A DNA stretch of 64,000 nt from Escherichia coli. Lineage in GTDB: Bacteria; Pseudomonadota; Gammaproteobacteria; Enterobacterales; Enterobacteriaceae. Position 1 is the stretch's first letter, and each line of letters opens with the position of its first letter. This document shows positions 1 to 52,903 of this stretch, piece after piece. Position numbers and translations under genes: made by a program. Location: NCBI RefSeq assembly GCF_041886205.1, contig NZ_CP169030.1; one strand, 5' to 3'. The notes under the pieces are model-generated. The model made no database searches and had not been told where the DNA came from. It saw only the letters and a program-made list of their open reading frames with translations.

Positions 1-978
1 GTGGATAAGTCGTCCGGTGAGCTGGTGACACTGACACCAAACAATAACAACACCGTACAACCTGTGGCGCTGATGCGTCTGGGCGTCTTTGTACCGACCC
101 TTAAGTCACTGAAGAACAGTAAAAAAAATACACTGTCACGCACCGATGCCACGGAAGAACTGACGCGTCTTTCCCTGGCCCGTGCAGAAGGATTTGATAA
201 GGTTGAGATCACCGGCCCCCGGCTGGATATGGATAACGATTTCAAGACCTGGGTGGGGATCATTCATTCCTTTGCCCGCCATAACGTGACTGGTGACAAA
301 GTTGAACTGCCTTTTGTCGAGTTTGCAAAACTGTGTGGTATACCCTCAAGCCAGTCATCACGCAGGCTGCGTGAGCGCATCAGCCCTTCCCTGAAACGCA
401 TTGCCGGTACCGTGATCTCCTTTTCCCGCACCGATGAGAAGCACACCCGGGAATACATCACCCATCTGGTACAGTCAGCCTACTACGATACTGAACGGGA
501 TATTGTTCAGTTACAGGCTGATCCCCGACTTTTTGAACTGTACCAGTTTGACAGAAAGGTCCTTCTTCAGCTTAAGGCGATTAATGCCCTGAAGCGACGG
601 GAGTCCGCCCAGGCACTTTACACCTTTATAGAGAGCCTGCCCCGGGATCCGGCACCGATATCGCTGGCGCGGCTGCGTGCCCGCCTCAATCTGAAGTCTC
701 CTGTATTTTCCCAGAACCAGACGGTCAGACGGGCAATGGAGCAGTTGCGAGAGATTGGATATCTTGATTACACGGAGATCCAGCGGGGGCGGACAAAATT
801 CTTCTGTATTCACTACCGGCGTCCCCGGTTAAAAGCGCCGAATGATGAGAGTAAGGAAAATCCGTTGCCACCTTCACCTGCGGAAAAAGTCAGTCCGGAG
901 ATGGCGGAGAAACTTGCCCTGCTTGAAAAACTGGGTATCACGCTGGATGACCTGGAAAAACTCTTCAAATCCCGCTGA
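1..978 (+). CDS. repA: RepFIB-type plasmid replication initiator RepA
   Basis: 325-aa ORF with GTG start exactly at the window edge; translation matches my recollection of IncFIB RepA ([17 protein letters not shown]...); followed by a repeat-rich non-coding region. Confidence 0.85.
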
Positions 979-989
979 ACATAAACTGT

Positions 990-1250
990 AATCAGTGAAG
1001 AGTGCTCCTTTACTGACTACAACTTATATTATCAGGTGCAGTGAGTGGTCTGCTCACTGCAGTTTATATTCAGTTTCCTGCAGTGCTGCCTGTGGCTGAG
1101 CTGCCATCTGCCTGTCCCTTACGTGAGTCACCCCGTAACCTGATGCTGAGGCATTGCTCCCTTCATAAAACATGGTTTACTCACTACAGCTTATCTACCT
1201 GCTCCAGCTTATGTTATGTCTGTTCTGCTGACCACTGCTTATATAAGGAA
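990..1250. repeat. repA-downstream repeat region (putative iterons); contains palindrome GCAGTGAG..CTCACTGC and reiterated CTTAT(A/G)T-containing motifs
   Basis: Read directly; exact iteron units not resolved by eye. Confidence 0.3.
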
Positions 1251-1256
1251 GTGCCG

Positions 1257-1997
1257 TTACTTCAGGGGAGGCAGTGTACGCAGGATCTCCGCAGCATCCC
1301 GCCCGTCACCTGTGAAAGGCACTGCCAGCGTGGCAGCCATATCCAGCGCAAACACTCTGGTATAAACCTCCATCGAACGTGGATCCCTGTGACCAGCCAG
1401 TGCCTGGATGACTTTCCGGGGCTGGCGGTGATAGAGCATGTGCATGATATAGCTGTGCCGGAAGGTATGTGGTGTGACCGGAATCGAAAAGTGCACCCCG
1501 TCAGCTTCGGCCCGCTTCACTGCCTGTTTCAGCCAGTTCCGCATCGTTTCATCCGTCACAGCCCATAACGGTGCACGGCGCCGGGGCCGGGTGGTGATCA
1601 TCCAGCTCTCCATCTGCCTGACATAGCTTATATCCGTCAGCGGGACCAGGCGGACTTCATCTTTTGGAGGGCGCCCGCGTCGCGCACGCACTTTTTCGGA
1701 CAGGATCCGCACAAACGGTCTTACACCATCCAGATCAAATGATTCCGGTGTCAGCATCCGGGCTTCGCCAATACGCATTCCGGTATTCCAGAGGGTGGCG
1801 AACAGCATATGGTGACGCTGATCCGGCATATAGAAAAGAAGGGCACTCACTTCCGGGGCCAGCAGGTAGGCCGGTGTGGCCCCCGTGGAAGTGGCCATTC
1901 TTCTCAGGGAGAGCGCTGTTGCAAAATCCACCCCCGGCGCAATGGGTAACAGGGAGACGCGTTCTGGTGAATTCTGCAGGGGAATGACATTGTTCAT
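1257..1997 (-). CDS. tyrosine site-specific recombinase (phage integrase family)
   Basis: 246 aa; C-terminal HTFRHSY...[15 protein letters not shown] fits the R-H-R-Y catalytic region of tyrosine recombinases. Confidence 0.8.
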
Positions 1998-2752: not shown

Positions 2753-4252
2753 TCAGTTAGTGTCTCCGGTACCACTTCCCTGACACGTTATATCTTCAGA
2801 TTTCCCCGGAAACAGGAGGTGACGAACAACAGCCTCATCCACACATAAATTAGAGCCAGCTAGCGCCAGCGTATGCCCGTCACCGTTAATAGTCAGTAAC
2901 GGAGCTGAAAATTTATCTGCCATTTTACGGGCATTTATCCAGGGAGTTGTCGGATCATATTTGTGTGCCACAAACAGTAAACCGGATGGTAAAACAGTAT
3001 TCTTCAGGCGTGTCTGTTGCAGATCGCGATGAATTGGCCATAATTCACAAAATTCAGGTAAATCGGACTGTTCCCTCTCAAAATTAACGGCCGGAAATGC
3101 GTCAGCAAGAGCTTTTTTTCGCGATTTTCGTTGTTCCTGTGATAATTGTTCATCACTCTGATCAACACATAATATTACACCCAGAGCATCACTGACTTTT
3201 TCCGATGCTATGGAAGAATTAAGTGCAGTTTCAATTTCATTGCTGACAATACCCTGAGAGAACTGACGTACGGCCGTTGCAAGTGTTGGCCATGATGAGC
3301 GCCATAACAGAAGCTCTGTCGTTAATGATATGAGATCATCTGAAGATATACTTTCCCCCCTGCTGTCTGTTAAAGGAGAATTATGTAATTTTAATAAAAG
3401 CTGATGGAACTGATGTATTGCCTGATTCCTGTCTGAAGAAAGTGGACAACTTTTTGTCCTGGCACACCATGCAGCAAAACGATCAAACGTTTCCTGATAA
3501 CTGTGGGCCTGCCTGAGTTTCCATGAAAAATTATCATTTAAATCATCAATATCAACGACACCGTCAAAAACTATAGATCTGATACTGGATGGAAAGCGTT
3601 CGGCATATAAGGCTGCAATCTGTGTACCGTATGAATATGCTACAGCTGTCAGTTGTTTATCTCCCAGAGCTTGTCTGATGCGTTCAATATCATATACAGC
3701 CTCATGAGATCCAATATGGCGAATGACTTCAGCTCCTGTATTATGGATACAGGCATTAATTTTCTGTAAAATTAGTTGCTTTTCACTTACATTCACCAAT
3801 CTTTCTTGATTGGATTGCTGGCAGTTTATGGCAGGAAAGGACTGACCGACACCTCGTGGATCAAAACCGATAATATCCCATGATTCCCGAAGATTTGTGA
3901 CCGGCCAGTCAAAATTGATATAAGGATTAATTCCGGGTAATCCAGGTCCGCCACTTATTATAATAACACTCCCTTTACGTTTACTTTTTGCCGGCAACTT
4001 TGTCATCGCCAGTCTGACAAGTGGTATATTTTCATCTGACACATCCTCACCTGTGTCGGTATATTTTAGCGGTACAGATAGATATCCGCATAACAACTCA
4101 GGTGAAGAGCTTTCTTTACCAAACCAGTCACTGTATGGGCTGGTCATACAGGATTGCCACTCGATCTGTCTGGCAGACACAGTTCCGCAAAGAAAAACAG
4201 AAAAGATAAAGAATACTAAAGTCCTTCTTAAAGGCTTCATTATCACACGCAT
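2753..4252 (-). CDS. secreted alpha/beta-hydrolase-fold peptidase (S33 prolyl/tripeptidyl aminopeptidase-like)
   Basis: 499 aa; N-terminal signal peptide (MKPLRRTLVFFIFSVFLCGTVSA); GGPG oxyanion-like motif and AYSYGT nucleophile-elbow-like motif; start codon uncertain (M1 or M5). Confidence 0.55.
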   Translation of the reverse strand: MRVIMKPLRRTLVFFIFSVFLCGTVSARQIEWQSCMTSPYSDWFGKESSSPELLCGYLSVPLKYTDTGEDVSDENIPLVRLAMTKLPAKSKRKGSVIIISGGPGLPGINPYINFDWPVTNLRESWDIIGFDPRGVGQSFPAINCQQSNQERLVNVSEKQLILQKINACIHNTGAEVIRHIGSHEAVYDIERIRQALGDKQLTAVAYSYGTQIAALYAERFPSSIRSIVFDGVVDIDDLNDNFSWKLRQAHSYQETFDRFAAWCARTKSCPLSSDRNQAIHQFHQLLLKLHNSPLTDSRGESISSDDLISLTTELLLWRSSWPTLATAVRQFSQGIVSNEIETALNSSIASEKVSDALGVILCVDQSDEQLSQEQRKSRKKALADAFPAVNFEREQSDLPEFCELWPIHRDLQQTRLKNTVLPSGLLFVAHKYDPTTPWINARKMADKFSAPLLTINGDGHTLALAGSNLCVDEAVVRHLLFPGKSEDITCQGSGTGDTN

Positions 4253-4344
4253 TGCATCTCCTGCATTGGTAAATTATTACCCTGACCAACAGACAGAATC
4301 CCCGGCGGTATAATTCTCACCGGGGATGATGACAGTTAAAGTTG

Positions 4345-5292
4345 TTAAAACGTGTACTTCAGACCGGCCGTCGTAATGAAGTTGTAATTTTCAATTCCAG
4401 CCCCGTTATTATTATGCTCCGAAGTATTATCACTACGGTCGTAAAGAGATGTATCCCCTTTTTTATTTGTGAGACGACTCCATACACCCTCGATGTACAC
4501 TTTTGCCTCTGGGGTAATATAGTAACCGGCATTAACTGCAACAGAATAGTAATTCTGGTTTATTACTTTGCTTCGGAATGTAGTTTGTCTTACATAATGC
4601 TCATCATTATCAGATCCCCTGACCCACCCGCTGTATTTAAATGCACCACCAAACTCAAAATTATCGTAACGGTAGTTTCCTGTCAGACCGACATAAGGAA
4701 TTTTAAAATGTTGTTTATAACCAATCACTTTTATTTTATCAGGTAACGCTCCCGTTTCATTCCGGAAACCACCATTCTCACTATAAATATAAGTTCCTCC
4801 TGTAGCATTAAAACTGTAACGGCTTTCCTGATAACCTGCCATAATAGCAAGGCGATAATCAGATTCTTTTAAAAACCAGCCTTTAACGTTCAAATCAAAT
4901 TCGTTGGCATAATTAAGACGTGTATCAGGATGCCTGCTTTCATCTGTCCATGTTCCGGGAGTCCCGGAATCCATCCAGTCCTGATCAACCATATTCCCCC
5001 CCCGACTATTGAGAGTGGTCCAGCCAGCTGCACCAACAGATAACCATGGATTCAGCTCCCAGTTAACGGCGCCTTTAAGAATGGCGGCGTTACTGTATTT
5101 CCAGTCCAGTTGGCTGACTTTACGTCCACCTTCTTCAGGCTCATAAACCCGTTCTTTTGTTTTGCCACTCAGTGTACCTAAATTAATCTCTGTACTTATT
5201 TTCTCCGGGCCGAAGAAATCAGAAGCAGAAGCTTCCTGAGAACTGAATACCACAGGTGCTGCAAGCATAATTGCCAGAAGCTTAGTTTGCAT
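4345..5292 (-). CDS. ompT: omptin-family outer-membrane protease (plasmid OmpT-like)
   Basis: 315 aa; clearly homologous but not identical to E. coli OmpT by recall (shared DQDWMDS, TWTDESRHPDT and C-terminal GLKYTF). Confidence 0.85.
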   Translation of the reverse strand: MQTKLLAIMLAAPVVFSSQEASASDFFGPEKISTEINLGTLSGKTKERVYEPEEGGRKVSQLDWKYSNAAILKGAVNWELNPWLSVGAAGWTTLNSRGGNMVDQDWMDSGTPGTWTDESRHPDTRLNYANEFDLNVKGWFLKESDYRLAIMAGYQESRYSFNATGGTYIYSENGGFRNETGALPDKIKVIGYKQHFKIPYVGLTGNYRYDNFEFGGAFKYSGWVRGSDNDEHYVRQTTFRSKVINQNYYSVAVNAGYYITPEAKVYIEGVWSRLTNKKGDTSLYDRSDNTSEHNNNGAGIENYNFITTAGLKYTF

Positions 5293-5940
5293 AACAATGA
5301 CTCCCTTCTGTCACTTCTACATATGTATATGATTCTTTTGATGTACACCGGTAAGTCAATTATCAGTACTTAATTTGTTTAGCTTTTGTTTAACCTAATA
5401 GTTTGTTTTTGTGAGGTATATCAATATATCTAAATGATATGCGGTAATGGTGTGTATGTCATCTGAACATTCTTTATGGATAGTCTGTATAGACAGAACT
5501 TAATGTTAACATGGCTATTTGTTTATATAGATAGTCATTTTTATCTTAATACATCTGGCACATTATCTATTTGATATACTGATATGGTTCTGTAATGAGG
5601 TAAGAGTTTAGCTACTAAATGGAGGGCCTGACGCAACTACAGGATATGAGGTGAAAATATCGTCCTGATATGGCATAGTGAAATATTATAGTCGCTTTCT
5701 TAACTTATCCGGGCCTGGATAAAGTCCTCAGTTTTTTCTGATGGATTGTTGGATTTTTTAAGATTTTTTTATCTTTTTACTTCAAAAAAGATCTTGTAAT
5801 TATTGCAGTAAGTTGCATTGATAATGATTTTGCTATTGTATACAAAAAAACAGACCTCATAGCATAGCACTTTTAAATTTGTATATTACAATATACATAA
5901 AAGTCATGTCAATTATCACTTAAGGTTTGTTAAAAATCAT

Positions 5941-8900
5941 ATGAGCCATAAATTTTATTATGTTATCTCTTTCCTTCTCTCTCTGGCATCATCACCTTCG
6001 ATAGGTGATGAAATGAATTGCCAACGTTATTTTTGTTTTGTTAATGGCATTGTTGAAATAAGGACTGCTCCCGAAGAATATCAAAACAAGCCAGTTCTGG
6101 TTGGTTCACAAAGTGACGGGCTATTAATTATTGATAATCATGCGGATATTGAGGATGGTATATTTTCCACACTTCATATTGGTAATGGATATAATGGTGC
6201 TGTTGATGTTATTAATGGTGCTGCTTTACATATGGATAATCGTTCAGGAAGCGCACCTCTTATTGTAGGTGCATTCGGTAATGATATTGCAGGAAAACTT
6301 AATATTTCTGGCAGAAACAGTATAGTATCATATAGAGATACGCCCAGCAGTTCTGGACATAACGAATCTATTTATGTCGGTTTTGGGCTTGGTGCAACAG
6401 GATGGATTAATATTTTTAATGGTGGAGTATTTGAAGTTTTAAATAGTACTAATATATATGTAGGTTCAGATACTCCTGGTGGGGGAGATGGCAGTATCGT
6501 GATTGATGGCAGCAACAGCAAGATGACCGCAGATTTTTCTGAGGCATATGTCGGGCTTTATGGTAATGGTGATATTTCCTTAAAAAATGGAGGTCAGTTA
6601 TCTGCCAGTAACTTATATATAGGAGGTAATGGTAGAGCCATTGTTAATATAAGCGGTACTGATTCCAGATTAATTGCAAATATGATAACCATATCAGGAA
6701 GTTCTGGTGCGCCGGGCATTTACATAGCAGATCAAGGAATTCTTAATGTAGATAACTACATCAATATAACTACGGCAAATGACACAAAAGGGAAATTATT
6801 CATCAATAGCGACATGCCTGGAACTATTGAATCTAAAGGGATTCTTTTTGGTGTTGGGAAGGCAGAGTTGATTTTTAAACATAACTCTGACAATTATGCT
6901 TTTTCATCACCTTTAATTTCTAAAAACACAGGTAATGGTATAGTTAATGCAGAGAGTGGCGAGACGCATCTCACGGGAGATAATACCGATTATAGTGGTT
7001 TGTTGAATATTTTACCCACGGCAAGTATTGATATCAGTAGTCAAAAAAATATCGGCAAGTCAGTAATTGTTAATAATGGGGTGCTGCAAATAACCAGCCA
7101 GGATGACTGGACATTCAATAATAATATGACTGGTAACGGTTATCTTAATGTTCATACTGGTGGACATAATTTTGCTTTCCAGAATTCAACGAATACACAG
7201 GAATTTACAGGTACGCTGGCATTGTCTGATACACTCTTTGACTTGAGTGACGACAATACCACTGCACTAACTTCAGCACTAGTGCTTGCTGGGGTCGGGA
7301 GTGTGATAACTGCAGGTACTGGAACTCAGGTTATTAACGGATTTTCATTTGACGGTGGAGCCGTAAATTTCGGTGCCGTAACTCAGGGAGCTCAGCAAAC
7401 TGAATCCCAGATTCAGGTTACTGACAATCTGTATATCAATGGAAATGGTGCTGTACGGGTTTCAACACCCACAGATGTGAATGGTATTCCACAGGTCATT
7501 AATTCTTCACTTTCATTGCTGGAACAGGATGACAGTAATGCCACCATTAAACTTGTAGATGCAAGTTCCGCAGTTGTAAAGGGGAATGGTGGAAACCTTC
7601 AACTGCAGGATGCCTCCGGGCAAGTAATATCCTCAGGTAAGCAAAGGAATATAGTTCAACAGGGAAAAAATGTTGCTAAGGGGGTATACGATTATCGTCT
7701 GACATCAGGGCCCCATAATGATGGACTGTATATAGGTTATGCTCTGACTCAGCTTGATTTGCTAGCCTCTGGTGTTGATGCACTCGTGCTTGATGCTGCA
7801 GGTACAACTGGAAATGCAGCAGACATGAGTGCCCGTATCACAGGTGCCGGAGACCTGGCTTTCAACAGTCAGAAAGGAGAAACCGTTTCTCTGTCGAATC
7901 AGGATAATGATTACACAGGAGTTACAGCTATCCGCGGTGGTAATGTCCTCATGAACAGCAACAGTGTTCTGGGACAGACCAGCGAGATTCGTCTGGCTAC
8001 TGATACCCGGCTGGACATGAACGGTCATAGCCAGACTGTTGGTAAGCTTAATGGTGCTGCAGGTTCTGTACTGAACATCAATGGCGGGAATTTGACCCTG
8101 ACTGATGATGGCGTATCTGCCGGTACTCTGACTGGAGGTGGCTTCCTGAATATCAGCGGCGGCGTCCTCGATATTACAGGAGGCAACCACACTTTTGCTG
8201 TCAGCACCATAATAGCAAAAGATGCAACTGTCCGAATGAACGATGTTTCCGGACTGGGTACTGGTAACATCAGTAACGCTGGGACATTATCTCTTACTCA
8301 TGCCTCAGGCTTGCTAAGTAATAATCTGAGTGGTTCTGGTACAGTATCTTTGATCAATAGTGATACCCAGATTTCAGGAAATAACAGTAACTACTCAGGG
8401 CTGTTTGTAGTAGATACCAGCTCTCAGTTGACTGCCACTGGAGCGCAGAATCTTGGGATTGCTTCCGTGAGTAACCGTGGAATCTTGCAGCTGAACAACA
8501 CAACAGACTGGCAACTTATAAATAATGTTACTGGAACCGGTAATGTCCGTAAAACCGGTTCCGGTTCACTGACTGTCCGAAGCAATGCTGCCTGGAGCGG
8601 ACAGACAGATATTGATGACGGCTCTCTGATTCTTGGGCAATCTGATGCACCTGTCATGCTCGCCAGTAGCCTGGTCAATATTGCAAAGAACGGTAAACTT
8701 ACCGGATTTGGTGGCGTAGTAGGGAACGTAACCAATAGTGGAAGCCTTGACCTGCGATCGGCGGCTCCGGGAAATATTCTGACGATTGGAGGTAACTACA
8801 CCGGTAATAATGGCACGCTGCTCATTAACACAGTGCTGGATGATAGCTCTTCTGCAACCGACAAACTGGTAATTAAAGGCGATGCGTCCGGTAAGACCCG

Positions 8901-10128
8901 AGTGGCTGTTACGAATGTTGGTGGTTCAGGCGCTAATACGCTGAATAGTATTGAAGTTATTCATGTTGATGGTAATGCAGCTAACGCTGAATTTATTCAG
9001 GCCGGACGTATAGCGGCCGGCGCTTATGACTATACTCTTGGACGTGGGCCGGGAAGCAACTATGGAAACTGGTATCTGAGCAGTAGTAAAAATACTCCAG
9101 AACCAAGGCCTGATCCTGAACCTACTCCGGAAGGGCATGATAACAACCTGCGTCCGGAGGCTGGCACATACACCACAAACCTCGTTGCTGCGAACACCAT
9201 GTTTGTGACCCGCCTTCATGAACGTCTGGGGCAGACGCAATACGTCGATGCAATTACCGGAGAACCGAAAGCAACCAGTATGTGGATGCGCCATGAAGGA
9301 GGACATAACCGCTGGCGCGACGGTTCTGGTCAACTGAAAACTCAAAGTAATCGTTATGTGATTCAACTGGGTGGTGATATCGCACAATGGGATTGGGGTG
9401 GAACTAACCGCTGGCATCTGGGGGTTATGGCTGGTTACGGTAACAACCATAGCAGTACAGGTGCAGTACGCACCGGATACCATTCAAAAGGCAGCGTAAA
9501 TGGTTACAGTACCGGGCTGTATGCTACCTGGTATGCTGATGATGAGACTCATAACGGAGCTTATCTGGATACCTGGGCTCAGTACGGCTGGTTCGATAAC
9601 CATGTGAAAGGTGACGGACTGCCGGGTGAATCCTGGAAATCAAAAGGACTTACCGCCTCACTGGAAACAGGTTATGCCTGGAAAATCGGGGAATTCAGCA
9701 GCAACTATGGCAATCTGAACGAATGGTATGTTCAGCCTCAGGCCCAGCTTGTCTGGATGGGGGTTAAAGCTGATGAACTCTATGAAAGTAACGGTACTCT
9801 TATTGAAAGCACCGGAGACGGTAATGTCCATACCCGTCTGGGCGTGAAAACCTGGATTAAAAGGCTCAATAAAATGGATGATGGTAAATCACGTGAGTTC
9901 AGCCCATTTGTGGAGGTGAACTGGTTGCATAATACCCGTGATTTTGGGGTTCGTATGAACGGCGAACCGGTGTATCAGGATGGTACCCGTAATATCGGAG
10001 AGGTCAAAACTGGTGTGGAAGGTCAAATAAATCCCCATCTGAACCTGTGGGGGAATGTGAGAGTTCAAGTTGGTGATAAAGGGTATAACGACACCTCAGC
10101 CATGCTGGGTGTGAAGTATACATTCTGA
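5941..10128 (+). CDS. AIDA-type (type Va) autotransporter, 1395 aa
   Basis: Long Gly/Asn/Thr-rich beta-helix-like passenger; C-terminal region with autotransporter beta-barrel hallmarks ending in KYTF; AT-rich. Confidence 0.75.
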   Translation: MSHKFYYVISFLLSLASSPSIGDEMNCQRYFCFVNGIVEIRTAPEEYQNKPVLVGSQSDGLLIIDNHADIEDGIFSTLHIGNGYNGAVDVINGAALHMDNRSGSAPLIVGAFGNDIAGKLNISGRNSIVSYRDTPSSSGHNESIYVGFGLGATGWINIFNGGVFEVLNSTNIYVGSDTPGGGDGSIVIDGSNSKMTADFSEAYVGLYGNGDISLKNGGQLSASNLYIGGNGRAIVNISGTDSRLIANMITISGSSGAPGIYIADQGILNVDNYINITTANDTKGKLFINSDMPGTIESKGILFGVGKAELIFKHNSDNYAFSSPLISKNTGNGIVNAESGETHLTGDNTDYSGLLNILPTASIDISSQKNIGKSVIVNNGVLQITSQDDWTFNNNMTGNGYLNVHTGGHNFAFQNSTNTQEFTGTLALSDTLFDLSDDNTTALTSALVLAGVGSVITAGTGTQVINGFSFDGGAVNFGAVTQGAQQTESQIQVTDNLYINGNGAVRVSTPTDVNGIPQVINSSLSLLEQDDSNATIKLVDASSAVVKGNGGNLQLQDASGQVISSGKQRNIVQQGKNVAKGVYDYRLTSGPHNDGLYIGYALTQLDLLASGVDALVLDAAGTTGNAADMSARITGAGDLAFNSQKGETVSLSNQDNDYTGVTAIRGGNVLMNSNSVLGQTSEIRLATDTRLDMNGHSQTVGKLNGAAGSVLNINGGNLTLTDDGVSAGTLTGGGFLNISGGVLDITGGNHTFAVSTIIAKDATVRMNDVSGLGTGNISNAGTLSLTHASGLLSNNLSGSGTVSLINSDTQISGNNSNYSGLFVVDTSSQLTATGAQNLGIASVSNRGILQLNNTTDWQLINNVTGTGNVRKTGSGSLTVRSNAAWSGQTDIDDGSLILGQSDAPVMLASSLVNIAKNGKLTGFGGVVGNVTNSGSLDLRSAAPGNILTIGGNYTGNNGTLLINTVLDDSSSATDKLVIKGDASGKTRVAVTNVGGSGANTLNSIEVIHVDGNAANAEFIQAGRIAAGAYDYTLGRGPGSNYGNWYLSSSKNTPEPRPDPEPTPEGHDNNLRPEAGTYTTNLVAANTMFVTRLHERLGQTQYVDAITGEPKATSMWMRHEGGHNRWRDGSGQLKTQSNRYVIQLGGDIAQWDWGGTNRWHLGVMAGYGNNHSSTGAVRTGYHSKGSVNGYSTGLYATWYADDETHNGAYLDTWAQYGWFDNHVKGDGLPGESWKSKGLTASLETGYAWKIGEFSSNYGNLNEWYVQPQAQLVWMGVKADELYESNGTLIESTGDGNVHTRLGVKTWIKRLNKMDDGKSREFSPFVEVNWLHNTRDFGVRMNGEPVYQDGTRNIGEVKTGVEGQINPHLNLWGNVRVQVGDKGYNDTSAMLGVKYTF

Positions 10129-10761
10129 CTATGGTTTTCTGTAAATTCAAAATATACTTAGTTTATTTTGAGTCAAGTTTAATCATAAATTAAATGGCTG
10201 ATAATTTCATACTAATTACTGACAAAACAGAATTAAGAATAACAACAAGAAGTAAATACAAATAAAATAGCATAAATATAATTATTTTTATCCATTCATG
10301 TCATCTGTAATATACATAAAGATATTAATGTGTTTAATCTGAATCAGGTGCTCTCAGAATATCAATTTATTATATATGGTAACTATCTGTTCAGTAAATA
10401 ACATACTCATCTTTAAGTTGATGATGTAGTAAGAAACACCACTGCGCAACTTGTTCTGGCTATTATTGTTAACATTGTTTATGGATAGACATGCTTTGGT
10501 ATTTTGAATATAAAGAAAAATAAGCAATTTCACAAACAAATTCAGATAAGTAGTCATAGCAAAAGAGAGCCCCTCTTTGGGAGTTTGCACGAAAGTTAAC
10601 ATTTTTTTTGTCATAAAATACATAGCATTACGATGGCGCTTGATGATTTGTGCTCAAACTGAAAAGAATATTCTGATTTTTCGTGATGTTGAGGGTATTC
10701 TGTAAAAAAACGTTATCTATTTCCTCAGTTTTAATTTTGTTTTATTTTTACTTTATCTATT

Positions 10762-30821: not shown

Positions 30822-33004
30822 ATGAAGATACTGAGGCAGCTGTGGAACCAGAAAGGGCTTGATGCGGCAGTTGAAGATGTACCTGAGGATCGATACGGTT
30901 TCGGTAATATCGCAGAAAATATATCCCGTTCCATCCTTACTCTTCCTCTGGAGGCTTCAAATGTTGTCGGAATAGAAGGTGCATGGGGATCGGGTAAAAC
31001 AAGCCTCCTTAATCTGATCCTGAGAAACCTTGCCCTGAAAAAAGATGCTCACACGCATGTGCTGCATATTTCTCCCTGGCTGAGTGGTGGCAGTCCGGTT
31101 GAAGCGCTCTTTCTTCCGGTTGCCACGGTTATCCAGCAGGAAATGGAAATACGCTATCCCCCGAAGGGCTTCAAAAAGCTCTGGCGTAAATATCTGTTGT
31201 CACCGGAAGCTCAAAAAGTGATTGAGTATGCTCAGGATACTTCATCGCGCGTCCTTCCACTGGTTCAATATATCGGACAGTTTTCCAGCATTATTAACTG
31301 GATAGCAGGCGGAATAAAGGTATTTTCAGACAGCCGTCTGGCTGTTGATCAGAAAACCACGACAAAGCTTCGGGCTGAAATTGCAGGACAACTGGTGAGT
31401 CTGGATCTGAAGTTCATTGTTGTCATGGATGATCTGGACCGACTGGAGCCATCCCAGGTGGCGGAAGTGTTCAGGCTTGTGCGTGCAGTAGCCGATCTGC
31501 CCCGCTTTACCCATATTCTCTGTTATGACAGGCAGATTATCACTCATGCCGTTGAACATGCGCTGAATATCGAAGATGGCAGCCGTTATCTCCAGAAAAT
31601 CATTCAGCTTAGTTTTAAATTACCCCGACCTGAAGCCTTTGATTTACGTAATGAATTTCGCCAGCGGGCTGAGGCTCTATATCAGCAAATTAATAATCAA
31701 CCGCCAGACTCTGGAATGGTAAGGGATCTCATCGCGGTGACTGATACCTATGGTGCCGCACTTTCGACGCCACGGGAAATCCATCAGGCCATTAATTCCC
31801 TGATTTGTGCCTGCTTCAGCTTATACGGGTGACAAACCCGGCTCTGTATGACTGGACAGAGCATTACCTGACAGAACGGTCCGTGATTGAAACCGGTCAG
31901 GGTATGCTTTCTGACGGAGAGAAAGCAGACTTCCGGGAGGGGCTTATCAGATGTATGAAGACGTTCAGGGCATCAAATGCAGACTCGTTTCTGACACTTG
32001 CAGACTGGATCCCAGGTATCAGTGGACATAATGATGAATATCTGAATCTTTTTGAGCCCGTCAGTGAGGATTTTCGTCATATCCAGACGACCGGTAAACG
32101 ACTCAGCAGCCTGACGCACTGGCGATATTATTTTGCCTTCTCCTCACCACAGAATGTTCTGCCACCTGAATTCTTCAGACAGCTTTTTGAACAGGCTGGC
32201 GTATCGGAAAAACAGCAGCAGCTTTCTGAATTGCTGCTCTCAAAAATCAACAGTGTGGGCAGTCTGTCCGGAACCTGGTTTGAACATATACTGAGCAGAC
32301 TGACTCCAGGCCTGATAAGAGAACGTAATTTCGAAGAGTGCGCAGGACTGGTTCATTTTTTCTTCGATCACACCGATGAGGTGAGCACTCGCTTCAGTAT
32401 CCGTAACCCATGGTTTTCCCTGCGTGAAATGGCCATTAATGAGGTTGTACGGCATCTGCTGAAGCATATGCAGGATATTGATGAGACCAGAACGATCACG
32501 CTTATGGAAAAACTGATCGTTACGGGTGCTTCGCCGTTCTGGATAGCCGATTTTATGCGGGATCTTATCTGGGAACATGGACTTGCTCAGAATGCAGTAC
32601 CTTCGCCTTCAGACGCTCTTTTCAGTCGCGATATTACGGAACGGTTGCGTGACAGGTTTGCGGAACGTATGAATCAACCAGAACTTCAGCAACAGCTTCT
32701 CCTGCGCAAGTCTCTTCTCGGGTATCTCTACGCCTGGAGAGACATGAGTTCAGGTGAAACCGTGAAGCAATGGGTCAGAGAAGTTACTACCACTGATGAA
32801 GGCCTTGTTAACCTGTTGATACGATTACAGACCAGTGTCTTCAGCTCCCACCGAGGGGCATATCGCCGGATTGCGCGTGACCAGGTCAGTCCGTTCTTTG
32901 ATGACTGGCCAGCAGTCGAAGAGAAGTTGAAGGTTATGCTGTCCGGCAACGAGCTGACTCCGGAGCAGGAAGCGCTCAAAACAGCGCTGGAAAATGACGA
33001 CTGA
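30822..33004 (+). pseudogene. KAP-family P-loop NTPase, split by a frameshift near 31805-31832 (about 730 aa if repaired)
   Basis: Walker A GAWGSGKTS, Walker B FIVVMDDLDR and PREIHQAINSL motif in ORF 30822-31832; continuation in the next frame at 31805-33004; IS21 ends 10 bp upstream of the ATG. Confidence 0.6.
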
Positions 33005-33053: not shown

Positions 33054-33953
33054 TCAGGCGCTTAATGCTTTATCCTTGTCAAAAGGAACACCGGCATACG
33101 CAAGCTCACTCAGCAGTTTGCGTTTCCATCCACCATGCTCATCAAGCTCGGTATAGAGAACCCCGGCAAGATCTGAAGGGATTTCGATATCTCCCTTCCT
33201 GAGTACAAGTACTTTCCCGCGTCCAAGCTTCCCGGCGAAATATCCGAGCTCATACAGGACATTCTGGCGTGCGCGGAGACGTGTGCTTTCAGATGCCAGA
33301 GCACTGCCGCTATCGTCGGGCGTCATCAGCACGATGGCAAAACTGACATCCCCTGACTCTGCTTCAAATTTCTCGATAATCGTCCTGGAGCCGTCAGGAC
33401 GTTCTGAAAGAATGATTTCCTCAAGACCTATCCGGGATATAAAACGGGCAACAGACTGAAGGGCATCATTATCATGGCCATGAACAATAAAAATTTTTCG
33501 GGAAACCGGCCGAAACACTGCAGGCTCAGGATCGTGTTGGTTTTCCACATACAACTGGTAATCGCGCACGAACGGGGCAACTAATGACGACGTGAATTTT
33601 CGAATGGATTCAATAATGTTTCGATCATAGAAAAATGTATGACAGAAATTAAAGGAAAAATTGTTATCGTCTGCCATTTTCTCGATCAGCAGCAACTTCA
33701 GGCCCAAAATATCAGCGGGCTCATCAGGCCACTGTAGAACAGCGGAACCAGCCATGCTGGATTCAGTATCTTCACTCCTGGCCAGAAAGGTATCAAGTTC
33801 AACATTGCGGGTCAGATGTGCATTAACTGACTGCAGATTCTCTGAGTTCAAGAGCCGGGCCAATTGCTTAAGAGGTTGCTGATAGTTCTGAACGTCAGCG
33901 CGCTGAAGGTCGAATACGCAATTTTTAAGTGACTGAAAGATATCAATTGCCAT
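33054..33953 (-). CDS. protein with C-terminal TIR-like (COG4271-type) domain and unknown N-terminal domain
   Basis: 299 aa; C-terminal KIFIVHGHD ... AIVLMTPDD ... RARQNVLYELGYFAGKLGRGKVLVL matches recalled hallmarks of the TIR-like domain found in CBASS/Pycsar-type effectors. Confidence 0.5.
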   Translation of the reverse strand: MAIDIFQSLKNCVFDLQRADVQNYQQPLKQLARLLNSENLQSVNAHLTRNVELDTFLARSEDTESSMAGSAVLQWPDEPADILGLKLLLIEKMADDNNFSFNFCHTFFYDRNIIESIRKFTSSLVAPFVRDYQLYVENQHDPEPAVFRPVSRKIFIVHGHDNDALQSVARFISRIGLEEIILSERPDGSRTIIEKFEAESGDVSFAIVLMTPDDSGSALASESTRLRARQNVLYELGYFAGKLGRGKVLVLRKGDIEIPSDLAGVLYTELDEHGGWKRKLLSELAYAGVPFDKDKALSA

Positions 33954-35333: not shown

Positions 35334-37472
35334 TCAAGCGATACGGGCAACCGAGCTCTGGTTTGCTGCCGGTGGCAGGGCGATGAGCTTGTCACATTCC
35401 ATAATCACGTACTCCGGGATGAGATCGAATCTGGACGGATCTAGTTGACAGATGAACTCATTTTCAATGTGGTACGTTTCGTTAACGAATTTTCGTATTA
35501 CCGGATGGTCCTGATCCAGTTCCAGTAAACGGAATACCTGCAGTTTTTCATAGCCGTTACGACAGCGACGGTACAGGTTTTTTATTTCATCTGGGCTGCT
35601 GACGAGAGCCTGAAGTCGCGGGTAATCAAAACTGTCCACATACTCCCGGATATCCCGCAAGGCCTGCTGAATTTTCTCAGGAGCCATTTTGGGATAGCCC
35701 GAGCCCGCAGCGGCAGGCTCGCGATAATCCAGCGGGACGACGCGTCGATGGAATAGATTGGATAGAAGCTGATAAGCATCACCACGTTCGTCAACGATTT
35801 CAAAGTAGCGACGAAGATAGATGAGCTTAATGATCTCCTCACAGTCTGCTGACGCGGTGATGGATTTGCAGATCTGCATGAATGTCATGATATCGCCGTC
35901 GTTAACAGGTAATTCTTCTATGACTCCAGCAGACAGGCGCAGGCAGGAGGCGGTCACCTGATTACTGAACAACCTTCTGACTGACTTCAGCGTGTCAATC
36001 ACAGGCTCCACGTCATGCGTCAGCATAAGTACAGTCCGGTTCTTCAGGCATTCACCACTTGCACGTCTGAACAGCATTTCAAGAATGGCAAACTTCTTGT
36101 TTTTATCAAAAGAAGATATGGGATCATCAAGGATAATCAGTCCCGGGTTTTTTGACAGGCATTCATACATGAATAACACAATCGCAAAGGCGTTCCGTTC
36201 TCCATAGCTGAGATGCTGGCTACCGCCGCTGACGTACCCGTCAAAATCTATGTGTCGTAGCCTGAGTTTTCTCTGCTCTCCCTCGCCGGCTATATCCACC
36301 CTGTATTTATAGCCTGCATAAGTGAGGAAATTATTGATGTTTGTTTTGTGCTGTGCGATCAGCCGGATCATGCTGTCCCGGTGCCGGTTAATTTTTCCCT
36401 GCAGCGGTCCGGCAAGGTTTATCAGGTCCATAAGGGCCGCGTTCAGTCTGTCGGTGATCCCCTGCATGAGTTCGGATTGCAGATCAGGGAAGAACTGCAG
36501 GTCAATCAACCTGGCAGTGAGCACCTCCCGAACGTTCTGCTGTTCCTGCAGGCTGAAAACATTCAGGCCTCTCAGCGCAGTGAGTTTCTCTGTCAGCGTA
36601 TCGGTCTGGCGTTTCAACGCCACTAGGTACTCGATATGTTCGGCTTCCGGACCGTTCTGAAGCATAGTAATGGCCAGAAGGCGTTCTCTGGCGCTCTCCG
36701 TCAGGTAATTACCGAGGTTTTCCACCAGTCTGATGATAGCGGTCAGGTTTTTAATGGTGGATTTATCGTATTCCTCTCTGACTTGGCGAATTTGTGCTTC
36801 CTTTCCCGTGATATCACCGGTACAGAACGGACAGCAGCCATCCGAAAGGGGCGAAAACTCGAGTCCCTTTGTCTGCCAGTCAATCCATTCCACGCGGCGT
36901 TCACTGCGGATGTAGGGTTGATAGTTCTCAAGACCAGCCGGAATGTGGTGTATTTTATTTCCGCCTGACAGACCTCTCATGCCGGTTGAAGAACGTGAAA
37001 TCCCGGAACTGGTTGATCTGAAAGCATTACTGAGTTCCTGTAGATGGTCTATCAGAGAGTTCAGCTCAGTGTGATCCGTGAAAACAGCCCGGATCTTTTG
37101 CGTCATTTCTTCTATTTCACGCTCTCTTTCCGCATGGGCTTGATTGCGGATAAGAATATTAAAGCTATCACTGATGAGCTCGTCCGGTTGGAACGTAAAC
37201 TGACTGACGTACTCCTCGTTGAAGCACATCACGTCCCCAATCCCGTCAGCACCGATGACAATGGGCCCGGTGCTATCGGGGTTTTCTCCGCGCAGCCGGA
37301 AGGGTATCAGTGCCTGTAGTCCCTGAATGTCGTCCCGCGCCGCACAGCTTATGGCCCGTGACAGCGTACTTTTTCCAGTACCATTTGGCGCAAACTTAAT
37401 GTTCAGTTTATCGGCAGTGAGGGTGATATGTGCTCGTACGATGTTATTGCAGTGGCGTATTTCAATGTCCAT
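35334..37472 (-). CDS. RloC/Rad50-like ABC ATPase with CxxC motif in the inter-lobe insert and an uncharacterised C-terminal domain
   Basis: 712 aa; Walker A APNGTGKST near N-terminus; CCPFCTG about residue 213; signature-like LSYGERN, Walker B LIILDDPISSFD and H-loop LTHD about residues 415-480; roughly 230 aa beyond the ATPase. Confidence 0.55.
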   Translation of the reverse strand: MDIEIRHCNNIVRAHITLTADKLNIKFAPNGTGKSTLSRAISCAARDDIQGLQALIPFRLRGENPDSTGPIVIGADGIGDVMCFNEEYVSQFTFQPDELISDSFNILIRNQAHAEREREIEEMTQKIRAVFTDHTELNSLIDHLQELSNAFRSTSSGISRSSTGMRGLSGGNKIHHIPAGLENYQPYIRSERRVEWIDWQTKGLEFSPLSDGCCPFCTGDITGKEAQIRQVREEYDKSTIKNLTAIIRLVENLGNYLTESARERLLAITMLQNGPEAEHIEYLVALKRQTDTLTEKLTALRGLNVFSLQEQQNVREVLTARLIDLQFFPDLQSELMQGITDRLNAALMDLINLAGPLQGKINRHRDSMIRLIAQHKTNINNFLTYAGYKYRVDIAGEGEQRKLRLRHIDFDGYVSGGSQHLSYGERNAFAIVLFMYECLSKNPGLIILDDPISSFDKNKKFAILEMLFRRASGECLKNRTVLMLTHDVEPVIDTLKSVRRLFSNQVTASCLRLSAGVIEELPVNDGDIMTFMQICKSITASADCEEIIKLIYLRRYFEIVDERGDAYQLLSNLFHRRVVPLDYREPAAAGSGYPKMAPEKIQQALRDIREYVDSFDYPRLQALVSSPDEIKNLYRRCRNGYEKLQVFRLLELDQDHPVIRKFVNETYHIENEFICQLDPSRFDLIPEYVIMECDKLIALPPAANQSSVARIA

Positions 37473-41755: not shown

Positions 41756-43333
41756 TTATCCTCGTTTTTCCCAAAACTGTTTTGCCAGTTCGCTCAGAGC
41801 GCTAGTTAACTGAGCGACAGATTTCGCACTTTGCAAATTATTCTGCCCGGTCTGTACATTGGTATCAGCAGCATCGCGTATATTGATAATACTGCGGTTT
41901 ATGTCTTCACTTACTGCTCCCTGCTGCTCGACCGCAGTCGCTATTTGCGCGTTCATGTCGGTAATTTCGTTAACGCGTTGGCCAATTCCATCAAGAGCTG
42001 TAGCTGCTTCCTCTGCGTGAGCTACACTCGTGTGCGCTTGCCGACTACTTTGCTCCATGACTGTAACAGCGGATTGCGCTCGCTCTTGTAGAGCGCTGAT
42101 CATGCTTTGAATATCCGTTGTCGATTGCTGTGTGCGAGCAGCAAGACTGCGAACCTCATCGGCGACAACAGCAAAACCACGCCCCTGCTCACCAGCACGC
42201 GCGGCCTCAATTGCTGCGTTGAGTGCCAACAAATTCGTTTGCTCGGCGATCCCTCGTATAACGTCAAGAACTTTTGATATCTCGTTACTTTGACCTTCAA
42301 GCTCATGAATAACCTGAGTGGCTTGCCTAATTTCACCTTCAAGGGCAGTGATTGACTGGCTTGTGTGGGCTACCAGACGCTGGCCAGATGCCGTCTCAGT
42401 GTCTGCTCTTCCGGCCGCATCTGCAGCATGCTGTGCATTGCTCGCAACCTCTTGAATGCTTGCCACCATTTGGTTTACTGCCGTTGCTATTTGATCTGTC
42501 TCTGCCTGCTGCTCAACTGTAAGTACATTGCTTGACTCAATATCCTTTAGTAGGCCTCGGGTGTGTTCGCTAAGCCGATTTGATGCATCACCTATGCGAC
42601 CTACTATGGCGCCTGTTTCAGCTTGCATCATTCGTAAAGCAAACTCTATTTGGCCAAACTCATCGGTGCGCCCAGTGTAGAGGGATTGACTTAATGGGTT
42701 ATTGGAAATATTCTTGGCTCTTTCAACCAGTCTTCCAAGAGGAGAGAGAATAGCCAAAACACTAACAGAGCTTAAGCTTCCTGACATTAAAGTGGCTAAC
42801 AATAAGCTGCTTATTGATGTATCAGTAAGCATGCCGGCAGCCATTGCGCTTGATATAATACTACCCCATATGAGCAAGAGTATTTTCACGGAAAAGCTAG
42901 CAGCCAATTTCGGCCTCGCGGCCTTCCCGCTTCTCAATTGAGCATATAATTTTTCCGCAGCCAAAACCTGCTCAGGTTCAGGCTTGGTCCTTACAGACTG
43001 GTATTCAACAATCGAACCATTCTTAGCTATTGGCGTTACATAAGCACTTACCCAATAGTGGTCGCCATTTTTACAGCGATTTTTTACTAGCCCCATCCAT
43101 GAGCGGCCAGATTTTAATGTACTCCACATATGCTCAAATGCAGCAGGCGGCATATCTGGGTGTCTTACGATGTTGTGAGGCTGGCCTAATAGTTCTTCCT
43201 CAGTGAAACCACTGATTTTAATGAAGTCAGGATTAACGTACGTGATATGGCTTTGAGGGGAGGTAGTCGAAAGAATATTGGCATCTTTTGGGAGTTCTAA
43301 GTTTCGACCCGTCACTGGTAAATTCTGGCGCAT
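41756..43333 (-). CDS. methyl-accepting chemotaxis protein with PAS domain (Tn1721 orfI-like)
   Basis: 525 aa; PAS-like N-terminus, transmembrane segments, MCP signalling domain. Confidence 0.8.
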
Positions 43334-43650: not shown

Positions 43651-43766
43651 CAGTTGATTGGGCGTAATGGCTGTTGTGCAGCCAGCTCCTGACAGTTCAA
43701 TATCAGAAGTGATCTGCACCAATCTCGACTATGCTCAATACTCGTGTGCACCAAAGCGAGGTGAGC

Positions 43767-45446
43767 ATGGCGACGGACACCCCACGGATTCCAGAACAAG
43801 GCGTGGCCACTCTGCCTGATGAGGCTTGGGAGCGTGCGCGCCGTCGTGCGGAGATCATCAGTCCGTTGGCGCAGTCGGAGACGGTCGGGCACGAAGCGGC
43901 CGATATGGCGGCTCAGGCGCTGGGCTTGTCTCGGCGCCAGGTATACGTTCTGATCCGGCGTGCCCGGCAAGGCAGCGGCCTCGTGACGGATCTGGTGCCC
44001 GGCCAGTCCGGTGGAGGTAAAGGTAAGGGGCGCTTGCCGGAACCGGTCGAGCGCGTCATCCACGAGCTACTGCAAAAGCGGTTCCTGACCAAGCAGAAGC
44101 GCAGCCTAGCGGCCTTTCACCGCGAAGTCACTCAGGTGTGCAAGGCTCAAAAACTGCGAGTGCCGGCGCGCAATACCGTGGCCTTACGGATCGCTAGCCT
44201 TGACCCGCGCAAGGTCATCCGCCGGCGGGAAGGCCAGGATGCCGCTCGTGACCTACAAGGTGTGGGCGGCGAGCCTCCTGCCGTGACCGCGCCGCTGGAG
44301 CAGGTGCAGATAGACCATACGGTCATCGACCTGATCGTGGTCGATGACCGCGACCGGCAACCTATTGGCCGCCCGTACCTGACCCTCGCCATCGACGTGT
44401 TCACCCGCTGCGTGCTCGGCATGGTCGTCACGCTGGAAGCGCCGTCTGCCGTTTCGGTTGGCCTGTGCCTCGTGCATGTCGCCTGCGACAAGCGCCCTTG
44501 GCTGGAAGGACTGAACGTGGAAATGGATTGGCAGATGAGCGGCAAGCCCTTGCTGCTCTACCTAGACAACGCGGCCGAGTTCAAGAGCGAGGCCCTGCGC
44601 CGGGGTTGCGAGCAGCATGGCATCCGGCTGGACTATCGCCCGCTGGGACAGCCGCACTATGGCGGCATCGTGGAACGGATCATCGGCACGGCGATGCAGA
44701 TGATTCACGACGAACTGCCGGGAACGACCTTCTCCAACCCTGACCAGCGCGGCGACTACGATTCCGAAAACAAGGCCGCCCTGACGCTGCGCGAGCTAGA
44801 GCGCTGGCTCACATTGGCGGTCGGCACCTACCACGGTTCGGTGCACAACGGCCTGCTCCAACCGCCGGCCGCGCGCTGGGCCGAGGCCGTGGCGCGTGTC
44901 GGCGTACCGGCCGTCGTCACACGCGCTACTTCGTTCCTGGTCGATTTTCTGCCGATCCTCCGGCGCACGCTGACCCGCACCGGCTTTGTCATCGACCACA
45001 TCCACTACTACGCCGATGCGCTCAAGCCGTGGATTGCGCGGCGTGAACGCTGGCCGTCCTTTCTGATCCGGCGCGATCCGCGCGACATCAGCCGTATCTG
45101 GGTCCTGGAACCGGAGGGACAGCATTACCTGGAAATTCCCTACCGTACCTTGTCGCATCCGGCTGTCACCCTCTGGGAACAACGGCAGGCGCTGGCGAAA
45201 CTGCGGCAGCAAGGGCGCGAACAGGTGGATGAGTCGGCGCTGTTCCGCATGATCGGCCAGATGCGTGAGATTGTGACCAGCGCGCAGAAGGCCACACGCA
45301 AGGCGCGGCGTGACGCGGATCGCCGCCAGCACCTCAAGACATCAGCTCGGCCGGACAAGCCCGTTCCGCCGGATACGGATATTGCCGACCCGCAGGCAGA
45401 CAACTTGCCACCCGCCAAACCGTTCGACCAGATTGAGGAGTGGTAG
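43767..45446 (+). CDS. tniA: TniA transposase (DDE)
   Basis: 559 aa starting MATDTPRIPEQG, as recalled for Tn402 TniA. Confidence 0.85.
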   Translation: MATDTPRIPEQGVATLPDEAWERARRRAEIISPLAQSETVGHEAADMAAQALGLSRRQVYVLIRRARQGSGLVTDLVPGQSGGGKGKGRLPEPVERVIHELLQKRFLTKQKRSLAAFHREVTQVCKAQKLRVPARNTVALRIASLDPRKVIRRREGQDAARDLQGVGGEPPAVTAPLEQVQIDHTVIDLIVVDDRDRQPIGRPYLTLAIDVFTRCVLGMVVTLEAPSAVSVGLCLVHVACDKRPWLEGLNVEMDWQMSGKPLLLYLDNAAEFKSEALRRGCEQHGIRLDYRPLGQPHYGGIVERIIGTAMQMIHDELPGTTFSNPDQRGDYDSENKAALTLRELERWLTLAVGTYHGSVHNGLLQPPAARWAEAVARVGVPAVVTRATSFLVDFLPILRRTLTRTGFVIDHIHYYADALKPWIARRERWPSFLIRRDPRDISRIWVLEPEGQHYLEIPYRTLSHPAVTLWEQRQALAKLRQQGREQVDESALFRMIGQMREIVTSAQKATRKARRDADRRQHLKTSARPDKPVPPDTDIADPQADNLPPAKPFDQIEEW

Positions 45447-46357
45447 CCGTGGACGAATATCCCATCATCGACCTGTCCCACCTGCTGCCGGCGGCCCAGG
45501 GCTTGGCCCGTCTTCCGGCGGACGAGCGCATCCAGCGCCTTCGCGCCGACCGCTGGATCGGCTATCCGCGCGCAGTCGAGGCGCTGAACCGGCTGGAAGC
45601 CCTTTATGCGTGGCCAAACAAGCAACGCATGCCCAACCTGCTGCTGGTTGGCCCGACCAACAATGGCAAGTCGATGATCGTCGAGAAGTTCCGCCGCACC
45701 CACCCGGCCAGCTCCGACGCCGACCAGGAGCACATCCCGGTGTTGGTCGTGCAGATGCCGTCCGAGCCGTCCGTGATCCGCTTCTACGTCGCGCTGCTCG
45801 CCGCGATGGGCGCGCCGCTGCGCCCACGCCCACGGTTGCCGGAAATGGAGCAACTGGCTCTGGCACTGCTGCGCAAGGTCGGCGTGCGCATGCTGGTGAT
45901 CGACGAGCTGCACAACGTGCTGGCCGGCAACAGCGTCAACCGCCGGGAATTCCTCAACCTGCTGCGCTTCCTCGGCAACGAACTGCGCATCCCGTTGGTT
46001 GGGGTAGGCACGCGCGACGCCTACCTAGCCATCCGCTCCGATGACCAGTTGGAAAATCGCTTCGAGCCGATGATGCTGCCGGTATGGGAGGCCAACGACG
46101 ATTGCTGCTCACTGCTGGCCAGCTTCGCCGCTTCGCTCCCGCTGCGCCGGCCTTCCCCAATTGCCACGCTGGACATGGCTCGCTACCTGCTCACACGCAG
46201 CGAGGGCACCATAGGGGAACTGGCGCACTTGCTGATGGCGGCGGCCATCGTCGCCGTGGAGAGCGGCGAGGAAGCGATCAACCATCGCACACTCAGCATG
46301 GCCGTTTACACCGGACCCAGCGAGCGGCGGCGGCAATTCGAGCGGGAACTGATGTGA
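45440..46357 (+). CDS. tniB: TniB ATP-binding protein
   Basis: Walker A GPTNNGKS; exact start codon uncertain. Confidence 0.8.
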   Translation: MVAVDEYPIIDLSHLLPAAQGLARLPADERIQRLRADRWIGYPRAVEALNRLEALYAWPNKQRMPNLLLVGPTNNGKSMIVEKFRRTHPASSDADQEHIPVLVVQMPSEPSVIRFYVALLAAMGAPLRPRPRLPEMEQLALALLRKVGVRMLVIDELHNVLAGNSVNRREFLNLLRFLGNELRIPLVGVGTRDAYLAIRSDDQLENRFEPMMLPVWEANDDCCSLLASFAASLPLRRPSPIATLDMARYLLTRSEGTIGELAHLLMAAAIVAVESGEEAINHRTLSMAVYTGPSERRRQFERELM

Positions 46358-50495: not shown

Positions 50496-50968
50496 TTCCT
50501 AAAAAAGGGGGGGGCCATGGTTCCAAGATGTAAAATCGAGGGCTAATTCAGGCTATACTTGAACTATCCTTAATGGAATCTTTAGCCAGCGGTATCAACG
50601 AAGCAAGAAACATCGAAGACTAATTAAAAGAATCCATACATAACGGAAAGAGCCGATAAAATGAGATTGTATTAATCTCATTTTATCGGCTCTGCGTCTT
50701 TGCGTCTGGCTCTGTAATCGCAGTTACTTTGAACTGCTTTATTTCAATTAAATTTTCTTGTCTGCATTTCGGACAATAGAGGGGGAATTTTTTTAATTCA
50801 GTATCTTCCCTTATCTTTAATCGTGTTTTATTTCCACATACAGGACACAATATCCACTTGTAGTTTATAATAACTATCTCCTCCTTTACACTTTAATTCA
50901 AATCTTTATTAAAAAATATTTCATCTTATTTAACAAGAAACCATATTTATATAACAACATAAAATACA

Positions 50969-52888: not shown

Positions 52889-52903
52889 GTGATTTTCCTC
52901 CAT

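Follow-up and report, generated by a model that had tools for sequence, protein, structure and literature searches.

The gap between the replication initiator gene repA and the convergent gene int raises the question of whether it holds a functional part of the plasmid replicon and, if so, whether that part starts replication or restrains it. A sequence-only reading of the window, by which we mean the whole 64-kb stretch of DNA analyzed here, had described positions 990-1250 as a repeat-rich region following RepFIB repA, but had not been able to delimit canonical iterons by eye because the copies are unevenly spaced and of mixed orientation. We found that the gap of 278 bp holds repeats, with six ~20-bp copies resembling ATAAGCTGTAGTSAGTAA, and the iterons were mapped in a 20-nt register (Table 1).

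The product of repA contains the Pfam domain Rep3_N (WH1; E = 3.5e-11), a winged-helix domain typical of iteron-binding initiators. Thousands of IncFIB plasmids carry it under the annotation of a RepB family plasmid replication initiator, and it is 99-100% identical to the RepA proteins of the related loci L001, L006, L007, and L009. The iteron cluster was found directly 3' of this RepFIB (Rep3/RepE-type) initiator gene. The true start of repA is a CTG codon located 14 codons upstream of the annotated GTG (PMC11983097) and lies outside the window. Together with this CTG start, the ribosome-binding site, the promoter, and the whole origin (iterons B-D'', DnaA box, and GATC cluster) are located upstream of the window (compare L001, positions 2020-2062). 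Megablast matched this stretch in 3,352 PLSDB plasmid records, almost all of them from Escherichia and typed IncFIB, and over its first 24.7 kb the window shares 99.1% identity with the F plasmid, which places the region in the RepFIB replicon of an F-like plasmid.

Table 1. Features of the repA-int region, with positions in the window. Sequences of minus-strand iterons are given as read on that strand.
Feature	Position	Strand	Description
repA (RepFIB initiator)	1-978	+	ORF from annotated GTG start to TGA stop at 976-978; 325 aa
Iteron E	979-998	+	ACATAAACTGTAATCAGTGA; directly follows the repA stop codon; oriented like the origin iterons
Iteron F	1010-1029	-	ATATAAGTTGTAGTCAGTAA; tail-to-tail with E, forming a long inverted repeat
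F'	1031-1048	+	Degenerate inverted half-iteron; good tail GCAGTGAGTGG, poor head; left arm of the palindrome
Palindrome	1037-1061	+	GCAGTGAG-7 nt-CTCACTGC; F' tail facing G tail; terminator-like hairpin, then GTTTATATTC
Iteron G	1050-1069	-	ATATAAACTGCAGTGAGCAG; 23.5 bits (10-copy matrix)
G-H spacer	1070-1176		Divides the E-F-G group from the H-I-J group
Iteron H	1177-1196	-	AGATAAGCTGTAGTGAGTAA; best copy, one mismatch to consensus
Iteron I	1195-1214	-	ACATAAGCTGGAGCAGGTAG; good head, weak tail; abuts H, 18 bp start-to-start
Iteron J	1225-1244	-	ATATAAGCAGTGGTCAGCAG; 22.3 bits (10-copy matrix)
J'	~1241-1260	+	Decayed head-to-head inverted partner of J; 6-bp deletion between 1251 and 1252 relative to F/pO157
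int (tyrosine recombinase gene)	1257-1997	-	246-aa ORF, convergent with repA; Pfam Phage_integrase, E = 1e-14
Iteron K	1614-1633	-	ATATAAGCTATGTCAGGCAG; inside int codons D-I-S-Y-V-R-Q; 12.6 bits (10-copy matrix), weaker copy

In what follows, int is regarded as the neighbor of the iteron control region and as the host of K; we do not claim that it belongs to the control region. An ORF of 175 aa at 1041-1568 on the plus strand, which runs antisense through int and crosses the iterons, was treated as spurious. Further along the window, F-type backbone cargo occupies 2753-16071 in the same arrangement as in F, with a secreted alpha/beta hydrolase (TAP-like; 2753-4252, minus strand), an ORF with the size and position of ompP (4345-5292, minus strand), and two very large autotransporter genes (5941-10128 and 10762-16071, plus strand). 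Insertion sequences and transposons make up a mosaic at 24741-58016, which carries genes for a KAP-family NTPase (30822-31832) and an AAA_13 ATPase (35334-37472), a PAS-MCP gene (41756-43333), a Mu/Tn7-like transposition set with TniQ (43731-47571), a gene for a Tet(M)-like ribosomal-protection GTPase (50969-52903), and a Tn3-family transposase gene (55050-58016). A class 1 integron and tet(M) are annotated on the best plasmid matches to this mosaic.

Repeats between repA and int

The motif CTTAT(A/G)T, of which the sequence-only reading had noticed several examples after repA, was indeed present at 1023, 1208, and 1238. These are three of the 13 plus-strand occurrences in 64 kb, and by our own arithmetic ~0.05 occurrences would be expected in 261 bp; the near-variants CTTATCT and TTTATAT were found at 1190 and 1063, respectively. 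A repeat search showed that the motifs are the ends of a longer unit. It returned a 24-nt repeat family at 1006-1029, 1046-1069, 1173-1196, and 1221-1244, to which an 11-nt core, CTACAGCTTAT, added a further copy at 1202-1212, as well as a copy in inverted orientation at 975-995, next to the repA stop codon. When the 20-nt consensus TTACTSACTACAGCTTATAT was searched with at most three mismatches, two matches (F and H) were obtained, as compared with none in 100 dinucleotide-preserving shuffles.

The relation of these repeats to origin iterons was examined with a weight matrix for which only the five origin iterons upstream of repA in the sister plasmid L001 were used, so that the matrix owes nothing to the region being tested. 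When both strands of the 64-kb window were searched with it, six of the 20 best positions were found to fall within the 266 bp of 979-1244, where the rate outside predicts ~0.06 matches (Poisson P ~5e-11, own arithmetic). The highest score in the window, 23.4 bits, belonged to H, followed by E with 22.3 bits (26.2 bits with a 10-copy matrix) and F with 18.1 bits; I ranked sixth (15.5 bits), G 13th (10.6 bits), and J 20th (9.4 bits). The maximum of this matrix in simulated sequence was 14.3 ± 2.2 bits, with 19.9 bits as the highest value. The ranking shows that the downstream repeats and the origin iterons of this replicon family have their sequence in common. Some of the labelled copies may be less than strong sites, as the origin-only matrix gives G and J no more than 9-11 bits and the tails of I and K are weak. 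Lone matrix matches at 2843-2862 (+), 33824-33843 (-), and 50957-50976 (+) probably arose by chance, as they lie within the null range; their scores were 12.2-17.4 bits (origin-only matrix) and 14.5-17.3 bits (10-copy matrix).

The copies are also related to one another in larger arrangements. The core of I, CTCCAGCTTAT, belongs to a direct-repeat family, F' has G and H as inverted-repeat partners (81% complementary), and F together with F' forms a direct repeat with J plus J' (73%). The inverted pairs comprise E/F and F'/G, which are tail-to-tail, and F/F' and J/J', which are head-to-head. Tandem Repeats Finder reported nothing in 900-1400, because the copies are unevenly spaced (40, 127, 18, and 30 bp), occur in both orientations, and are not arranged head-to-tail.

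Other types of element were also sought in the region. With a permissive threshold, the sole Rfam match was one to mir-802 at the E/F palindrome, which is at chance level (E = 0.077; 23 bits, the gathering score being 86), and a promoter scan of 850-1400 found no sigma-70-like site. The scan likewise located no counterpart in the E/F region of the 'EFp' promoter of the P307 literature. In the G-H spacer, RNA folding on either strand was no better than that of shuffles, and no Rfam family, promoter-like site, or terminator-like site was found there. As this spacer is also poorly conserved and carries indels, we do not propose a hidden element in it.

Homology and conservation of the iterons

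The region was compared with the F plasmid (NC_002483.1) and a pO157-like plasmid, both of which carry the P307 nomenclature. The RepFIB replicon of F was located by megablast; NC_002483.1 does not contain RepFIB at the coordinates printed in PMC11983097. The alignment of this region with the two plasmids needed no rearrangement and, save for one 6-bp indel, no gap; its mean column identity was 97%. Far from lacking an iteron match on alignment, the outcome that the sequence-only reading had named as speaking against it, the copies E, F, G, H, I, and J coincided with the copies labelled so in Suppl. Fig. S2 of PMC11983097, and their identity to the labelled F and pO157 iterons was 96-99%. K corresponds to the 21 nt, TCTGCCTGACATAGCTTATAT, that are missing from the 'K' line in a machine-read copy of the same figure (PMC11983097).

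Thus, the suggestion of a downstream iteron or incompatibility region of RepFIB is borne out, in that the repeats match both the origin iterons and the published repeats E-K of F and pO157. The span proposed for it, 990-1250, was the right region but slightly narrow, as it cuts E and misses K. The RepFIB repeats of P307, F, and pO157, named E-J and K in the nomenclature of the Bergquist laboratory, occupy the same position as the present set, from the repA stop into int. They also agree with it in initiator family and in the order and orientation of the copies, the likeness having been measured on F and pO157. For P307, in vivo footprinting was reportedly carried out by Spiers et al. in 1993.

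Only minor allelic differences separate this region from F and pO157. They comprise a G->A change in E at 991 (TGTAGTCAG -> TGTAATCAG), a G->A change in F at 1022 (ACAGCTTAT -> ACAACTTAT), an A in iteron G (1061) where the F plasmid has T, a T instead of A in J (1237), and a 6-bp deletion in J', after 1251. Both G->A changes are absent from the nine related loci that we aligned, and the A at 991 is specific to the window. The best identity among the 3,352 plasmid matches was 99.4%; therefore, no PLSDB record combines both G->A changes.

An alignment of ten replicons, i.e. the window and the nine related loci, showed that conservation is selective for the repeats. In the comparison with the diverged lineage (RepA ~92% identical), represented by L004, which keeps all copies, the iteron columns were 81% identical and the spacers 44%; over all spacer columns, the identity to this lineage was 36-44%. 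The G-H spacer is free to vary and has lost 44 bp in L007. The number of iterons changes by deletions and insertions of whole units with breakpoints inside the repeats (L003, L005, L006, and L004), apparently through recombination between repeats. F and G are fused in L003, H and J are fused in L005 and L006, and an extra copy is present in L004 and L003. Unit-sized changes were seen at L003 1611-1646, L005 1792-1827, L006 1778-1797, and L004 1192-1295.

Two of the weaker copies deserve comment. The head-to-head palindromic J/J' pairs, which are decayed in the window, are intact in the diverged lineage, where the counterpart of J' at the same position scores 23.6-25.5 bits (L002-L005). K lies in an island of 25 invariant columns across F, the pO157-like plasmid, L004, L002, and L005, including a decayed Salmonella int. 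Judged from this pattern, K looks like a site under a dual constraint of coding and protein binding.

Control cluster, origin, or recombination site

Upstream of repA, L001 carries five head-to-tail units resembling ACATAAGCTGTGGCATGTTA with a spacing of 21, 21, 21, and 23, which form the origin array, together with a perfect DnaA box, TTATCCACA, and seven GATC sites. The search for 21-bp repeats that the sequence-only reading had recommended therefore suits this upstream array, but not the downstream set, which lacks a 21-bp periodicity. The downstream copies do not have the arrangement of a classical phased array (head-to-tail, ~21-22 bp), since their spacing is 40, 127, 18, and 30 and E is inverted; thus, they represent a control cluster and not an origin-type array. 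In addition, no DnaA box and no GATC were found in the downstream cluster, which fits a control region rather than an origin. We consider it very probable that 979-1260 and 1614-1633 together are the downstream control iterons E-K of the IncFIB (RepFIB) replicon of an F-like plasmid, and the counterpart of incC.

In the mechanism that we propose, RepA, the Rep3/RepE-type winged-helix initiator encoded just upstream, would bind each ~20-bp unit, and RepA at the downstream units would pair with RepA at the five phased origin iterons (B, C, D, D', and D''). The pairing could take place in cis by looping or with a sister or competitor plasmid ('handcuffing'). It would block initiation, and the downstream sites may also titrate RepA. 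Copy number would thereby be set, and the block would act as a strong incompatibility determinant. For the present plasmid, the occupancy of the sites by RepA, the pairing with the origin in cis or in trans, and the resulting control of copy number and incompatibility are predictions from sequence.

Published work on the related replicons is consistent with such a role. The repeats have been termed Rep protein binding sites, and the upstream block has been tied to the origin and the downstream block to replication control (PMC11983097). When cloned alone, the EFGHIJ block displaced the FIB replicon of pO157, but the upstream block did not (PMC11983097, Table 3); this displacement in trans was shown for the pO157 block, which is 96% identical to the block described here. 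The downstream segment also worked best in plasmid-curing cassettes (PMC11983097). Handcuffing is given as the likely mechanism, as in the FIA replicon, and is still termed predicted for FIB (PMC11983097).

The RepFIA (RepE) replicon of mini-F offers an analogy, since it has the same plan of a Rep3-family initiator gene with origin iterons upstream and a second cluster, incC, downstream. The incC copies of mini-F form a regular direct array. The RepFIB downstream set differs from incC in iteron sequence and initiator, and also in its uneven spacing, the presence of both orientations, the palindromic pairs, and the placement of one copy inside the neighboring gene. The analogy to incC, in which the downstream cluster blocks replication via Rep-mediated pairing with the origin, has been drawn with reference to Uga et al. 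1999 (PMC11983097).

The IncFIB(K) replicon of Klebsiella shares with the present one the five phased upstream iterons and the DnaA box, the rep gene, downstream iterons in both orientations, and a convergent int. Its unit, ATTGACTGYGRTATGYAT, occurs in the five phased upstream copies, which lie beside the DnaA box, as well as in the mixed-orientation downstream copies, the first of which overlaps the rep stop codon. The iteron core is different (ATTGACTG in IncFIB(K) vs ATAAGCTG here), and there is no iteron at the K position in int, where nine of the 20 bases differ, including two amino-acid changes, and the flanks are identical. RepA is 60% identical to the IncFIB(K) RepA, whereas Int is 93% identical to the IncFIB(K) Int (L013 2591-3331). 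The convergent position of int is common to IncFIB and IncFIB(K), and int is conserved far more than the initiator.

This comparison bears on the possibility that the repeats, or the palindrome with its 8-7-8 layout, are recombination sites at which Int acts in multimer resolution or integration, and not Rep sites. The region abuts the 3' end of int, the linkage of int and rep is conserved across FIB and FIB(K), and inverted 8-bp arms around a 7-bp spacer resemble the core site of a tyrosine recombinase in outline. However, the repeats change with RepA, following in IncFIB(K) that replicon's own origin iterons, while Int stays 93% identical, which indirectly supports binding by RepA and marks them as probable Rep sites and not recombinase sites. 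Moreover, the repeats persist in loci where int is frameshifted or decayed (L002, L005, and L006), and they match the origin iterons, which lie beyond repA at a distance of 1.1 kb. Hence we regard a role as Int sites as very improbable. The same low probability is assigned to the cluster being a second replication origin instead of a negative control element. The cluster does contain multiple copies of a Rep site of the origin kind, but it has neither a DnaA box nor a collection of GATC sites, its spacing and orientation are irregular, and the elements of an origin, i.e. the five phased iterons, the DnaA box, and the seven GATC sites, are found on the upstream side in L001, in agreement with the division of roles between the two blocks in PMC11983097.

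The palindrome and the meaning of the locus

The palindrome pointed out by the sequence-only reading could be confirmed, with GCAGTGAG at 1038-1045 and CTCACTGC at 1053-1060 and 7 nt between them. The repeat search extended its arms to 16 nt (1030-1045 and 1053-1068; 81% complementary), and its right arm is entirely iteron G. In our view, what matters first about it is that both arms derive from iterons; a function as the repA terminator is a plausible addition. The possibility that it is primarily a rho-independent terminator of repA, with the likeness to iterons being secondary, is a serious one that we nevertheless find somewhat doubtful; a terminator is compatible with the control iterons as an added role. 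It is the only terminator-like site in 850-1400, is located 59 nt past the repA stop on the plus strand, and has GTTTATATTC after it. The RNA hairpin has a folding energy of -17.7 kcal/mol (z = -2.8), and its pairing is kept in 94% of cells across the ten replicons, with one double-sided change (CG->UA). That change is a single event in one lineage, though, and in the diverged lineage the tail is ACAGCTTATATAAG, which is not T-rich, and the stem is shortened to GGTGAG/CTCACT. Two changes seen in L006 and L008, GTGAG->GTCAG and CTGC->CTGT, make the stem weaker without compensation and switch between two variants of bona fide iterons; the variants of F' across plasmids, GTGAG and GTCAG, are these two iteron-type variants. 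The hairpin formed by E and F had a z of -4.4, and its pairing was likewise retained in 94% of cells across the ten replicons.

The inverted pairs might be more than debris of iterons and, by analogy with the RepE operator, be dedicated sites for RepA dimers that couple occupancy to the termination or read-through of repA transcripts and to transcription coming from int. We consider such a function unlikely, but if it did exist, the inverted pairs and the coding-embedded K would form an undissected regulatory layer.

The control iterons E-K are a textbook-type element that has been known for about 30 years and was taken up again in 2025, and the finding is thus already known and holds no novelty; it leaves the understanding of the RepFIB system unchanged. 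Its value for the window is one of annotation only, as the iterons are unannotated in database records and the coordinates now delimit them. The region that they mark is a main determinant of FIB incompatibility and copy-number control, and IncFIB is among the commonest replicons on resistance and virulence plasmids.
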